Assembly: GCA_001786835.1 (NCBI GenBank)
Contig: MFTO01000001.1
Coordinates: forward strand, 1-49,302
Direction: 5' to 3'
From: Candidatus Nomurabacteria bacterium RIFCSPHIGHO2_01_FULL_40_20
GTDB lineage: Bacteria; Patescibacteriota; Minisyncoccia; Phycocordibacterales; UBA9973
Length of the DNA stretch: 49,302 nucleotides
In this document: positions 4,810-8,449 of the stretch, piece after piece
Position numbering within the stretch: the stretch's first letter is position 1
Layout of the letters: each line of letters starts with the position of its first letter
Translations under genes and position numbers: made by a program
Notes under the pieces: generated by a model
The model's input: only the letters and a program-made list of their open reading frames with translations
Databases searched by the model: none
What the model was told of the DNA's origin: nothing

Positions 4810-5085
4810 CTAAATTCTTTTATTCGCGATTTCGTATACGACACTGCGGTGAGCGATTACAAATATTTTAACCCTTTTCCCTTCTATGCAAAAAACTACT
4901 CTATAATCCCCTACTCTCAATTTGAAATAACCTTTGAGTGATCTGCGAAGTGGTTTTCCATATAGGCTTGGCTCCGTAGTTAATTTTATTTCTATGTCTT
5001 GTTTTATACGTTTTTTATAGAAACTAGATATTTTTGGAATATCTTTCTTTACAACTTCGTCTGCGTATAATATTTCATAATTCAT
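4810..5085 (-). CDS. RelE/ParE family type II toxin
   Basis: 91 aa, YGKPLRRSLKGYFKLRVGDYRVVF...IAHRSVVY. Confidence 0.9.
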   Translation of the reverse strand: MNYEILYADEVVKKDIPKISSFYKKRIKQDIEIKLTTEPSLYGKPLRRSLKGYFKLRVGDYRVVFCIEGKRVKIFVIAHRSVVYEIANKRI

Positions 5086-5097
5086 ACAGTCACCGTT

Positions 5098-5319
5098 TTA
5101 CGCCCAAGCTTTTTTATGGCTATAAAAACGTGCTTTCTTATGATCACGCTTTTTTGCAATTTCACCGAGAACTATGTCTTCTTCTTGTTCCAGAGCTAAG
5201 GCTAAAAGATATACAGCTTTTGTAGCCATTGGAACACTGTCGCGCTTAGAAATACGAGATAGTAAAATATCTAAATCAGGCGACAATGAAATATTTAATC
5301 TTTTCTTTGTTGTAGGCAT
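5098..5319 (-). CDS. Ribbon-helix-helix antitoxin
   Basis: 73 aa, KKRLNISLS beta strand, acidic C-terminal half, directly upstream of the toxin. Confidence 0.8.
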   Translation of the reverse strand: MPTTKKRLNISLSPDLDILLSRISKRDSVPMATKAVYLLALALEQEEDIVLGEIAKKRDHKKARFYSHKKAWA

Positions 5320-5392: not shown

Positions 5393-5428
5393 ACTTTAGT
5401 TGACTAAAGAACTTTAGTATGCTAAAGT
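5393..5428 (+). promoter_or_regulatory. yerC promoter (TTGACT-N17-TAAAGT) overlapped by two tandem ACTTTA-N6-TAAAG operator palindromes
   Basis: actttagttgactaaaga (5393-5410) and actttagtatgctaaagt (5411-5428). Confidence 0.75.
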
Positions 5429-5467
5429 CGTTAGGTAAGAGAGATAATACAAGAATAATACAAGAAT

Positions 5468-5836
5468 ATGAATATATACGATTTAAATAAACAAGTGAAA
5501 ATTGACTGGAAAGAGAAGAAAAACAAGCAGTTGGTGCGTTCCCTGCTTGCCCTTAAGACTCCCCTAGAAGCAGAGCGGTTTCTGCGCGACCTGATGACCG
5601 AACCGGAAATCAAAGAATTTGCTAACCGCCTAGAAGCGGCTAAATTGCTCTCCAAGAATGTCTACTACGACACCATCATCGAAGACACTGGCCTCTCTTC
5701 TGCTACCATTGCTCGCATCAAAAAGTGGCTCCTAGGGCCTCTTGGGGGCTACCGTTTAATACTTACTCGCTTATCGAACCATCACAATCCTACCAAACTT
5801 GGGAAAGGATTGTCTTTCAGTGGTGCGCCGAAGTAA
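5468..5836 (+). CDS. yerC: TrpR-like YerC/YecD (HisR-like) repressor
   Basis: FLRDLMTEPEIKEFANRLEAAKLL...TGLSSATIARIKKWL...GGY. Confidence 0.88.
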   Translation: MNIYDLNKQVKIDWKEKKNKQLVRSLLALKTPLEAERFLRDLMTEPEIKEFANRLEAAKLLSKNVYYDTIIEDTGLSSATIARIKKWLLGPLGGYRLILTRLSNHHNPTKLGKGLSFSGAPK

Positions 5837-5905
5837 TAAACAAAGGCGACTAGCATAATTGGAAACCAACCCCTTCTCAAGTTTGAGAGGGGTTTCTTTA
5901 TTGTT
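5780..5905 (+). promoter_or_regulatory. Putative His-sensing transcription attenuator overlapping the yerC 3' end
   Basis: His-His codons 5780-5785; caatcct/aggattg hairpin; 5794-5812 complementary to 5867-5885; terminator 5862-5896 followed by a U-rich tract. Confidence 0.7.
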
Positions 5906-5980
5906 TCCTGAACAATTAAGCGGTTGCTATATAACCGAATTAACAAAAATAGCGAATTGTACATTTAAAATTTAATACAG

Positions 5981-6460
5981 ATGGAAAATAATGTAAGATT
6001 AGGCTTCACGAAAAGGTATGCTGTGAGGTTAAAGAACACTAGTCCTGAAACTATTGAAAAAATTATAGTCAGGATGAACCAAATTGAAAAAGAGTCACTT
6101 GATGATTCCTTTGAAGTACATGAAGTTATTAAAAAAATATCTGAATTGTATTTCAAAAATGAATCAGGTAATTTTTTTAGTCTAGAGGAAGATGAGGGTA
6201 AGATAGTTTTTGCGTATCCATACTATCCTAATTACTACACATCTTTCATTACAGAAAATGAAATAAGATTGATAATTGACCAAATTATCAATAGACTTGA
6301 AGAAGTTGTGGAACTCAGAAAATTCAAGAGAAGGATGTCTTGGTTTTATCTTTGGTTTAACCTTTACTCTTATCCTATAGTTGTAGAAATTGATTTACTT
6401 TTTAACCCTTCGAAAGAATTGGGAAATCAGTATGAGGTTAAACTTCGCAATGATAAGTAA
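5981..6460 (+). CDS. Hypothetical protein (AT-rich)
   Basis: 159-aa ORF, no motif recognised. Confidence 0.6.
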   Translation: MENNVRLGFTKRYAVRLKNTSPETIEKIIVRMNQIEKESLDDSFEVHEVIKKISELYFKNESGNFFSLEEDEGKIVFAYPYYPNYYTSFITENEIRLIIDQIINRLEEVVELRKFKRRMSWFYLWFNLYSYPIVVEIDLLFNPSKELGNQYEVKLRNDK

Positions 6461-6536: not shown

Positions 6537-7661
6537 ATGAAAAAAGATCAGTTTATTTTATCAGTTGACAAACTCCTTAACTCAGGAAGAAAAGATCCTG
6601 TTTCAGGAATATCACAACCACCTTTTGCTACTAAAAAAAGACAAGGAGTTGAATATCTTGAATATATTCTAGAAAACGGAATTAACGGAAAAAAATACGG
6701 ACCCGTATATGAAGATTCTGGAGATGAAATCATAAAATACTTATCAGCAATTCTCCAGCCAAAAAGGAGATTCGACGTTTTTGTACCGACTCTGTGTCTA
6801 AAGGACTTTGTTGACAAAGTTCTTCGAGGGCATTATCCAAAAAATATATACAAAGGAGTCAGTTACAATCCGCACCTGCTTGAGTATGGGGAAAAACTTG
6901 ATAACTTAGATTTTTTTAGTTATCTGTGTGAAGTAAGAGAATTTGTGACAGGTGAATCTGTTATTTTTGATGCAAGTTGTTATCATGCTTTGAATTTAAT
7001 AGATGTCGATTGGATATCTCCCAATGTTGCACCGGCTATTTGTCAAGAATTAGTCAGAACCTTTTTTTTAAACAATGAATTAAGGGAAAATTCTCTACTT
7101 CGTAAAGAGTATCTCTTGAGAATGAATAGTTTCTCTGGCTATCAAATGAAAATAATTTCAATGGCAGATGTTTTGACTGATCCAAAGAAAATAGGAGATT
7201 TTGAAAGTAGACTCACTTCAGGGCTTGCTCATTGCGAAACTTCAGTGGAAAACTCTCGCTTAAAAATTAGAAATTTTGTGAAATACAGAAGAATCGACAC
7301 AGAATTTTCCAAACTTTACACTCCATTAGTTCTTGCTGAAAATTTATATGCAAGAGAAATACTAAAGTGCAATGTTAAATTAGGTCCAATATCTGAGGTC
7401 AGTTTTGACAGTTTTATTTCAAAAATTCAGAGAGAAAAGTCTGGTTCTATGCAGTTTATTTGGTATACACGGCCGTTTGAAAAAGGAAGTTCTCCGGAAA
7501 CAACAATCTATAGTAAAGACAAAATGGATGTTGTAAAAAAGAAACTTTCTACTAATAAAGGTTATACGGATTGGTTGGATGATATAACTTCAACATTTTT
7601 CGTAAAAACAACGCCGTTGATGGAAAGGATTGAATGCATTATCAATGTATTAGAAAATTAG
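6537..7661 (+). CDS. Hypothetical protein, possibly a HUP-fold enzyme (isocyanide-synthase/CDPS-like)
   Basis: 374 aa; VFVPTLCLK...EYGEKLD...VIFDAS and YTPLVLAENLY...KLGPISEVSFD; weak resemblance only. Confidence 0.55.
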   Translation: MKKDQFILSVDKLLNSGRKDPVSGISQPPFATKKRQGVEYLEYILENGINGKKYGPVYEDSGDEIIKYLSAILQPKRRFDVFVPTLCLKDFVDKVLRGHYPKNIYKGVSYNPHLLEYGEKLDNLDFFSYLCEVREFVTGESVIFDASCYHALNLIDVDWISPNVAPAICQELVRTFFLNNELRENSLLRKEYLLRMNSFSGYQMKIISMADVLTDPKKIGDFESRLTSGLAHCETSVENSRLKIRNFVKYRRIDTEFSKLYTPLVLAENLYAREILKCNVKLGPISEVSFDSFISKIQREKSGSMQFIWYTRPFEKGSSPETTIYSKDKMDVVKKKLSTNKGYTDWLDDITSTFFVKTTPLMERIECIINVLEN

Positions 7662-7665
7662 GCTG

Positions 7666-7703
7666 ATAGCGACTTTAATTAACTAAAGTCGCTATTTTTT
7701 TTT
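7666..7703 (+). terminator. Intrinsic terminator
   Basis: atagcgacttta-attaac-taaagtcgctat followed by a T tract. Confidence 0.85.
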
Positions 7704-7728
7704 ATTCCTAAAGAAATTTAAACTTTAG

Positions 7729-7753
7729 GCGCGTTGATTTTGGCGGCGAGGAT
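7729..7753. repeat. 25-bp direct repeat of the phhB 3' end (other copy 8536-8560)
   Basis: gcgcgttgattttggc[g/a]gcgaggat, 1 mismatch. Confidence 0.85.
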
Positions 7754-8205
7754 TATTTAATATCAACCATATAAGCTTTTAAAAATGTTTCAATAGCGTC
7801 CACTGTGGACTCATTTAATTTAGCATTACTTTCAGCTACCCACTTTGCGAAATTGTATAATTCCTTTGTATCTACCTCTAACCACTTACCATTTTTGTGT
7901 AAAAAATAGAACATTGTTGTCATTGCAATGCGTTTATTTCCATTCTTAAAAGGATGATTTTTAATCATAAGGTAGAAAAGAATTGATGTTTTTTTAAGAA
8001 GCCCCGGATAAAGATCTTTGCCACCAAAAGTTTGAAACGGCGCCTCAATAGAGCGCTCAAGCGCGTTTGTATAACAAGTGCTAAAGTCTGGAATTGGTTC
8101 GGACCAAGTCATCGTCTCTTGAGCAAGACTGTGAGCTACATATTGGACATCTTTGACACTAATGCGCATTTTATTCTTTACCCAAGAGTTTGAGAGTTTC
8201 TCCAT
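7753..8205 (-). CDS. Fic/Doc family death-on-curing protein (true start possibly at MRISVKD)
   Basis: HPFKNGNKRIA Fic/Doc motif; APFQTFGGKDLYP. Confidence 0.9.
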   Translation of the reverse strand: MEKLSNSWVKNKMRISVKDVQYVAHSLAQETMTWSEPIPDFSTCYTNALERSIEAPFQTFGGKDLYPGLLKKTSILFYLMIKNHPFKNGNKRIAMTTMFYFLHKNGKWLEVDTKELYNFAKWVAESNAKLNESTVDAIETFLKAYMVDIK

Positions 8206-8449
8206 ACTCCTTTATTACTTTTTCGACTACTTGCTCAATGTCTTTCTTTTTTTCTTCGGTAAGAATACCTGTGTCATGAAAGAATTTATTACGGATAAAT
8301 TCCATAGGGATAGCGTATGCACGCCCTATCTTTTCTGCCGGCACCTGCCCTTTTTTTATTTTATTAAAAACAGCAATTCTGCTAATGCCAAGCATTTTTG
8401 CCAACTCGGCAACAGACACATATTTTTCTTTTTTATCCTTATTTTTCAT
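8171..8449 (-). CDS. Excisionase-like HTH protein, probable antitoxin of Doc
   Basis: YVSVAELAKMLGISRIAVFNKIKKGQVPAEKIGRAYAI; C-terminal IKEYGETLKLL; ttgttaacc/ggttaacaa inverted repeat upstream (8491-8520). Confidence 0.8.
   Translation of the reverse strand: MKNKDKKEKYVSVAELAKMLGISRIAVFNKIKKGQVPAEKIGRAYAIPMEFIRNKFFHDTGILTEEKKKDIEQVVEKVIKEYGETLKLLGKE

Follow-up and report, generated by a model that had tools for sequence, protein, structure and literature searches.

A hisR repressor gene of a Nomurabacteria genome whose 3' end probably serves as the leader of a histidine attenuator

Can the gene of a small repressor protein act at the same time as the leader peptide of an attenuator? This question is raised by a TrpR-family gene, here called hisR, at 5468-5836 (plus strand) of a 49,302-nucleotide stretch from Candidatus Nomurabacteria bacterium RIFCSPHIGHO2_01_FULL_40_20 (contig MFTO01000001.1, positions 1 to 49,302). 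This whole stretch is called the window in the following. An earlier note, made from the letters of the DNA, had proposed that the 122-amino-acid YerC-like product carries its only two His residues as a tandem pair in a tail behind the TrpR fold, that three mutually exclusive RNA structures follow, and that two palindromes cover the promoter of the same gene; a lack of conservation of the His codons or of the alternative helices in orthologues was named as what would speak against it. Our analysis makes it likely that the 3' end of hisR is a ribosome-mediated histidine attenuator and that the gene also represses its own promoter via two tandem operators. With somewhat less confidence we favor the wider view that one gene senses histidine twice, free histidine by the protein domain and charged tRNA-His by the last codons, as a portable cassette placed before his and many other genes.

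The product of hisR belongs to the protein family to which the note had assigned it. It matched Pfam Trp_repressor (PF01371) with 54.7 bits against a cut-off of 27 (expectation value, E, 1.1e-14; residues 20-102) and NCBIfam TIGR02531 (yecD_yerC, 'YerC/YecD family TrpR-related protein') with 60.7 bits against a cut-off of 42.2. The solved YerC/HisR relatives 3kor, 3g1c and 3frw were aligned with E values from 6e-10 to 6e-9, and this alignment covers residues 17-105 only. An AlphaFold model using 58 homologues is confident from about residue 10 to 105, and the predicted local distance difference test (pLDDT) score is below 50 for residues 107-122. The protein contains exactly two His, residues 105 and 106, encoded by CAT CAC at 5780-5785 (plus strand); these proposed regulatory codons start where the homology to the solved structures stops, so the pair lies in a tail beyond the TrpR fold. 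The note's assignment of YerC-type TrpR homologues as histidine regulators also agrees with the accessible part of Ashniev et al. 2022 (PMC9413887), which treats HisR regulons and in which 3g1c is the protein named HisR of Eubacterium eligens. In the same part, histidine as co-repressor is demonstrated in vitro only for the Ruminococcus gnavus protein; we infer the same co-repressor for the lineage studied here. By family and operator, the open reading frame (ORF) 5468-5836 is thus predicted to be a histidine repressor of the YerC/HisR family.

The putative operators are located directly in front of the gene. Palindrome 1 (ACTTTAGTTGACTAAAGA; 5393-5410) has one mismatch to ACTTTA-N6-TAAAGT and includes a -35-like TTGACT, and palindrome 2 (5411-5428) is an exact match whose right half is a -10-like TAAAGT. 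The promoter-like TTGACT-17-TAAAGT at 5400-5428 overlaps both, in line with the claim of two tandem ACTTTA-N6-TAAAG palindromes over the -35 and -10 regions. Both sites fit the HisR operator consensus (cacTTTA-N6-TAAAgtg type) given in the accessible part of PMC9413887, where cacTTTAnnnnnnTAAAgtg is listed as the HisR motif shared by Firmicutes, Actinobacteria and Synergistetes.

For comparison we used 81 loci, the window and the best 80 of 420 genome matches, which were assigned to Nomurabacteria, Paceibacterota and Parcubacteria; 80 of them were parsed for feature counts, and L029 (loci are labelled L, genomes G) stands outside these 80 and was read separately. Of 80 orthologue loci, 76 contain the exact operator pattern. 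In 75 of the 80 parsed loci, the 260 nucleotides (nt) preceding the conserved domain include at least one operator site, and a tandem pair at 18-bp spacing precedes hisR in 49. Searches tolerating mismatches did not rise above chance: with up to two mismatches the window holds 10 sites versus 5.97 expected, a number reached by 9 of 100 shuffles, and with up to one mismatch the genome holds 7 per strand versus 9 for a backwards control. The case for the operators therefore rests on five exact sites in the 550-kb assembly and on the conservation in orthologues. As far as its sequence tells, the hisR promoter fits an autoregulated promoter of the HisR type. As a separate observation, the 5' untranslated region of hisR contains an exact tandem 11-nt direct repeat (ATAATACAAGA twice, 5444-5465) just before the start codon.

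Downstream of the His codons we found the three structures that had been proposed. Hairpin 1:2 (5784-5813), a putative anti-antiterminator or pause hairpin, is formed by segment 1 (5785-5791) and the 3' part of segment 2 (5806-5812). Segment 2 as a whole, the 5' arm of the candidate antiterminator, extends over 5794-5826 within the last hisR codons. Segment 3 (5853-5885) is the 3' arm of the antiterminator, and its 3' part doubles as 5' arm of the intrinsic terminator 3:4 (5868-5903; stem about 5868-5893, U-rich tract); all these elements are on the plus strand. The minimum free energy (MFE) fold of 5770-5910 consists of the hairpin 5784-5813 and the terminator (z-score -3.10, one of 200 shuffles folding as well), and a terminator scan returned the stem 5871-5892 followed by TTTCTTTATT. 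The count of 16 Watson-Crick pairs and one G-U pair among 19 between 5794-5812 and 5867-5885 was reproduced, and an inverted repeat with arms of 38 nt (5789-5826 and 5853-5890) is 71% complementary. The helix energies in the window are -11.5 for 1:2, -15.3 for 3:4 and -33.5 kcal/mol for the 2:3 duplex with long arms. When the RNA was masked to 5792 or 5795, approximately the cover of a ribosome with a His codon in the A site, the antiterminator became the MFE structure and the terminator was lost. At threshold, Rfam gave no match to His_leader (RF00514), T-box or PyrR binding site in the window region; at E values up to 10 the best overlapping match was PyrR with 18.6 bits versus a gathering score of 54, and no family reached its gathering score in 20 orthologue loci.

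These elements suggest the following mechanism. Under histidine-replete conditions the leading ribosome would translate both His codons and the remaining 16 codons up to the stop codon. Either this ribosome would then cover segment 2 or segment 1 would capture it, 3:4 would form, and transcription would end about 60 nt past the hisR stop codon. When charged tRNA-His is scarce, the ribosome would stall on the His codons and cover segment 1, leaving segment 2 free to pair with the emerging segment 3; the terminator would be blocked and RNA polymerase would read into the downstream genes. The mechanism would presuppose that two or three His codons suffice for a stall, that the leading ribosome stays close to the polymerase and that read-through depends on histidine. 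The geometry, with tandem cognate codons just 5' of segment 1, a covarying antiterminator and an intrinsic terminator, is that of the his and trp attenuators, as the note had pointed out.

The His codons are conserved among the relatives. In a set of 120 homologous proteins among 338 with E <= 0.001, 114 have HH or HHH and the remaining 6 HxH, the total number of His is 2-4 in each, and a motif resembling N-x-S-K-L-(G/R)-K-G-L-S-L comes after the run. The tail contains HH in 68 and HH or HxH in 72 of the 80 parsed loci; the run has a fixed distance to the following segment 1 in 72, a segment 2 of the K-G-L type is likewise present in 72, and in about 80% of the loci the His codons lie 9-10 codons ahead of the Leu of this motif. 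The last 89 residues of the protein body are free of His in 79 of 80 loci. A loss of the His codons in orthologues, the first outcome that would have spoken against the proposal, was thus not observed.

An analysis of codon usage separates the tail from the rest of the gene. Over 42 conserved columns in the body of the gene, the most frequent codon has a share of 0.53, with 5-6 codons in use at Leu columns and mostly GGC or GGT for Gly. In the stretch K-L-x-K-G-L-S-L of the tail (six qualifying columns) this share is 0.90, and single codons are nearly fixed: CTT in 43 of 43 and TTG in 68 of 72 cases for Leu, GGG in 35 of 36 for Gly and TCT in 46 of 47 for Ser. The His codons themselves vary, with CAT 51 and CAC 11 times at one position and CAC 33 and CAT 24 times at the next. 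Because the synonymous sites of the tail are frozen whereas the His codons vary, the stretch after the run is held at the nucleotide level and the His positions as His codons.

Of the 81 loci, 58 entered the alignment (A3) in which covariation was analyzed. The other 23 are 16 loci not captured by the parser (L014, L021, L031, L046, L057, L058, L060, L065, L068, L073, L074, L076, L077, L080, L082 and L084), L024 containing N, L041 and L072 cut by a contig end, L022 with a failed regular expression for the terminator, and L079, L081 and L083 without the K-G-L motif; most of the omitted loci show the same architecture by eye. Over the 21 pairs of helix 2:3 (columns 30-52 with 102-124), 90.0% of the cells are paired, compared with 84.3% after shuffling and 32-63% after sliding by 1-3 columns. 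Changes on both sides occur in 14 of the 21 pairs (shuffled 7.2 +/- 1.3, slid 4-7), and there are 71 double-change cells (shuffled 12.9 +/- 4.1, with 0 of 500 shuffles reaching 71; slid 8-17). Five pairs (48-52 with 102-106), including 51/103 with 13 and 52/102 with 7 double-change cells, lie outside both hairpins, so that an origin of the tail hairpin as a diverged copy of the terminator cannot explain them. The window itself carries a compensatory change, TTTCA/TGGAA versus TTTGA/TCGAA in most loci. For the terminator 3:4, 94.2% of the cells are paired, and two-sided changes occur in 9 of 13 pairs; for 1:2 the values are 74.8% and 21 double-change cells versus 9.7 +/- 2.2 in the control. All three helices therefore show compensatory changes above the controls, and the second adverse outcome, a lack of conserved helices, did not occur either.

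Using a regular expression, the terminator was detected in 67 of the 76 loci with complete downstream sequence. Among the tailed loci without such a match, inspection by eye reveals a variant in L006 and L022, the terminator of L080 is of a different kind, and L021 seems degenerate. The median energies in the 58 sequences are -10.3 for 1:2, -20.0 for 3:4 and -21.8 kcal/mol for 2:3, the latter dropping to -9.0 when segment 3 was shuffled. In 45 of 58 sequences the 2:3 duplex surpasses 3:4 in stability, and 1:2, the weakest of the three helices, is thermodynamically far behind 2:3.

To describe the distribution of the element, 151 genomes from the family to which the window belongs were searched with a covariance model (R1), and 151 genomes drawn likewise were searched for the HisR protein. 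At E <= 1e-8, R1 identified 23 places in 22 family genomes, 21 of them adjoining a hisR match; with 84.9 bits the module of the window is among the best matches. A hisR match at E <= 1e-24 was obtained in 28 family genomes. Four of the seven genomes without a strong RNA match were inspected, and three (G095, G018 and G025) have tails with His runs and divergent terminators and one (G102) is tail-less. In a class-level sample of 151 genomes from 74 families, R1 matched 4 genomes belonging to 3 families (E <= 1e-6), and the element is therefore mainly a feature of one family.

Some loci contain parts of the module in other combinations. G062 has a second copy (L100, minus strand) in which a free ORF of 26 codons (2164-2084) carries H-R-H before V-G-K-G-L and has no repressor domain. 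It is preceded by an exact operator (2206-2189) with a degenerate second one adjoining, and downstream come a terminator that matches, at about 2063-2025, and a gene without recognised family. On these features L100 is predicted to encode a free leader peptide of the ordinary kind, made up of the same components. In G094 (L099, minus strand, about 2120-2006) the two hairpins occur without His codons, and no hisR match was found in that genome. The tail-less hisR homologues at L057, L077, L081 and L083 are without the attenuator terminator, and at L057 and L081 an operator-like palindrome is located directly ahead of the next gene.

The genes that could be reached by read-through were surveyed with Pfam in the 53 loci where a co-directional ORF, 100 amino acids long or more, starts within 700 nt. 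The families found were SLOG cluster 4 (9 loci), PRA-CH (hisI; 4), HisG (3), histidyl-tRNA synthetase (tRNA-synt_His; 2), ribose-phosphate pyrophosphokinase (Prs; 2) and a histidine-lyase-like aromatic amino acid lyase (Lyase_aromatic; 1); the rest are diverse or unknown. Genes linked to histidine follow hisR in 12 of the 53 loci and in at least five different arrangements, such as hisR, hisS, hisG, hisIE in L019, hisR, hisI, prs, ribD-like in L009 and hisR, hisG, prs, EamA in L010. Such genes are estimated to make up about 1% or less of a genome of this size. The note had named His-related downstream genes such as hisS as something to look for in orthologues; they occur there and do not follow hisR in the window genome, where hisS lies elsewhere and the downstream ORFs match no family.

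We also observed that in L009, L010, L019, L027 and L053 hisG, hisI(E) and prs are combined with ribD-like, riboflavin-kinase and EamA genes after hisR, and that hisA, hisF, hisH, hisB, hisC and hisD are not visible within 3 kb downstream at these loci. This hints at a partial or repurposed his pathway.

Several results weigh against a histidine attenuator. Masking the window RNA through 5798 lets the terminator form again, so the outcome in the window hinges on where exactly the ribosome footprint ends. As long as segment 4 has not been made, 2:3 is the MFE structure in the window even in ribosome-free RNA, and any role of 1:2 would therefore be only kinetic. The stop codon of the window gene lies 22 nt beyond segment 2, farther than in most orthologues, and 15 of the 21 double-change cells of 1:2 come from the pair 21/42, which consists of two synonymous third positions (AAC...GGG versus AAT...GGA). 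To our knowledge, the coupling of transcription and translation has not been studied in this lineage. In addition, 41 of the 53 downstream genes are not evidently related to histidine, and RNAalifold predicts de novo only a 7-pair terminator core and no other helix, which is as expected because the structures compete.

The last two results would also be compatible with an ordinary hisR gene followed by an ordinary terminator. The His tail would then be a protein feature, for example for metal or effector binding or as degradation signal, and its complementarity to the terminator would have no regulatory role. The conservation of the tail peptide at the amino-acid level and the synonymous variation of the His codons, as if the residue were selected, point in the same direction. 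However, selection on the protein leaves the near-frozen synonymous sites after the His run unexplained, 2:3 covaries also at pairs outside both hairpins, and the tail is predicted to be unstructured. Moreover, G062 possesses the same module as a short ORF without a repressor domain, and the homologues that lack the tail also lack the terminator. Taking both sides together, we consider an ordinary gene very improbable.

Equilibrium calculations with ribosome masks in 68 loci raise a different doubt. The terminator has a mean probability of 0.46 in ribosome-free RNA and of 0.44 when the ribosome is stalled at His; once the ribosome has reached the stop codon, the mean is 0.71. Between the stalled and the stop state the probability shifts by more than 0.3 as predicted in 26 loci, in the opposite direction in 5 and not in 37. 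Furthermore, five loci have a single His before segment 1. Both findings would suit an RNA switch that is real and does not sense histidine but reports the translation status of hisR or answers a protein or ligand, the His codons being kept for another reason: in the model, the state with the ribosome at the stop codon stands out more clearly from the rest than the stalled state does from free RNA, and the five loci with one His keep the helices. Any stall near segment 1 would also trigger such a switch, G094 has the helices without His codon or hisR match, and the downstream genes are diverse. The fixed place of the His run in 72 of 80 loci together with the absence of any other His in 79, the identity of the gene as a predicted histidine repressor by family and operator, and the histidine-linked genes in 12 of 53 loci argue for histidine as the signal, and make a switch of another kind rather improbable in our judgement. 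The single-His variants (L020, L029, L032, L042 and L054) contain an inserted stretch resembling a partial duplicate of the S-K-L-G motif, e.g. N-Q-S-K-L-G-T-G.

A further doubt concerns the window genome itself, whose assembly comprises 550 kb in 21 contigs and is 77.7% complete. The first ORF downstream of the terminator, the candidate target of read-through, is located at 5981-6460 (plus strand, 159 amino acids) and the second at 6537-7661 (plus strand, 374 amino acids); Pfam, NCBIfam and ESM Atlas gave no usable match for either, and no relatives of them were found among the other hisR loci. Their GC contents are 0.30 and 0.33 versus 0.458 for hisR. Two negative results join those set out above: tblastn with orthologue proteins detected no hisG, hisI, histidine-lyase or SLOG gene in this assembly, finding only hisS on another contig and a Prs-like gene, and neither an operator nor an attenuator was found upstream of this hisS.

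It is conceivable from these data that the module works in relatives and is a leftover here, the his targets having been replaced by a low-GC insertion and the terminator merely ending hisR transcription. The unmatched ORFs with their low GC content, the lack of a his biosynthesis gene in the assembly and the toxin-antitoxin-like genes that flank the locus would all fit such a history. We regard it as unlikely, with some weight left to it, as all elements of the window are intact (HH codons, 17 of 19 pairs of 2:3, terminator and both operators) and the R1 score is among the best. Close relatives with 78-80% identity keep the tail, and no promoter-like site able to serve ORF 5981 was found between the terminator and its start codon. 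A histidine attenuator that still functions in the window thus remains our preferred reading.

The flanking genes are a ParE-family ORF with a small upstream partner at 4810-5319 (minus strand) and a Fic/DOC ORF with a helix-turn-helix partner at 7753-8449. The position of hisR between toxin-antitoxin-like pairs suggests a variable island, because the two ORFs between them have a low GC content. Between the ORF 6537-7661 and the Fic/DOC gene, which are convergent, a terminator-like hairpin with a T run (7665-7705, plus strand) is located at the distal end of the hisR-led unit, and its stem holds a third exact HisR-operator palindrome (7672-7689). Similar palindromes with extended stems and T runs close hisR-led units in L022, L024 and L038. 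The element at 7665-7705 may serve as a distal HisR site, as a terminator or in both roles. The remaining exact operator sites of this genome (C2:23764, C6:7681 and C7:8838; loci L003-L005) lie ahead of genes for a NUDIX hydrolase and a DUF1905 protein and of an ORF with no family, none of them a his gene.

In 16 loci (L009, L010, L015, L016, L018, L020, L027, L029, L030, L032, L042, L043, L049, L053, L058 and L068) a second conserved leader was noticed in the 60-100 nt that follow the terminator. It consists of a hairpin GCGTT-N-AACGC, a hairpin with covarying stem and CCA-containing loop and a boxA-like TTGTTCTTTGAAAGGA, which lies just ahead of the start codons of quite different genes; an Rfam family matching this leader was not found. 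Prompted by the boxA-like TTGTTCTTTGAA, an rRNA operon or tRNA downstream was considered and rejected, as no rRNA family reached the gathering score in 20 loci and no tRNA was present in 58. Small ORFs after the terminator were dismissed as HisE since they are diverse and several are Cys-rich, and a mini-ORF at this place was dismissed as second His leader since HH occurs in L030 only and is not conserved as His.

If correct, the attenuator would be the first ribosome-mediated one recognised in Patescibacteria, and it would provide indirect evidence for a tight coupling of transcription and translation in these ultra-small cells. The HH codons and the three helices offer an easily mutated test case for this coupling, which is hard to reach in uncultured organisms. 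Repression and attenuation, separate devices in the textbook, appear to be fused in a single ORF, a regulatory compaction in a genome of about 0.6-0.9 Mb. For annotation, the tail is a warning that the conservation of a C-terminal peptide motif can reflect an RNA structure and not a protein feature. The available part of the literature, as far as searched, yielded neither a regulator gene that doubles as attenuator leader nor a case of attenuation in Patescibacteria.

The closest known systems are the enterobacterial hisL and trpL attenuators. They share with the present element the tandem cognate codons translated just upstream of segment 1, the mutually exclusive structures 1:2, 2:3 and 3:4 with an intrinsic terminator as default, and a similar energy ordering and spacing between codons and terminator (about 115 nt). 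They differ in the leader, which is a dedicated peptide of 14-30 codons there and a repressor ORF of 122 amino acids here. The leader of hisL has 7 His codons, whereas the elements described here have 2-4, with the stop codon after segment 2. The window does not match the Rfam His_leader family, and the host is an ultra-small Paceibacteria-like bacterium.

The HisR (YerC) regulons described in the accessible part of PMC9413887 agree with the present case in protein family, palindromic operator consensus, autoregulation and, in some lineages, the position of hisR first before his genes, whereas HisR is described there with fewer than 100 amino acids. In the same part, His attenuators are reported only in lineages without HisR, and Patescibacteria or Parcubacteria were not found among the HisR-holding phyla, although the supplementary genome lists of that study could in principle include such genomes. 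As far as this literature goes, the present data would extend the HisR regulon to a further phylum.

The dual control of the trp operon in E. coli by TrpR and trpL is similar in that a TrpR-family repressor senses the free amino acid and ribosome stalling the charged tRNA; there, however, repressor gene and leader are separate and unlinked, whereas here one ORF heads the regulated unit. SecM, MifM and VemP are examples of regulatory arrest ORFs with the length of a normal protein. Like the proposed hisR mechanism, they use a stall near the C-terminus of a full-length ORF to remodel the downstream mRNA structure and to control the next gene. The stall is caused by arrest of the nascent chain and acts on the translation of the next gene in these systems, while in hisR it would result from tRNA shortage and act on the termination of transcription.

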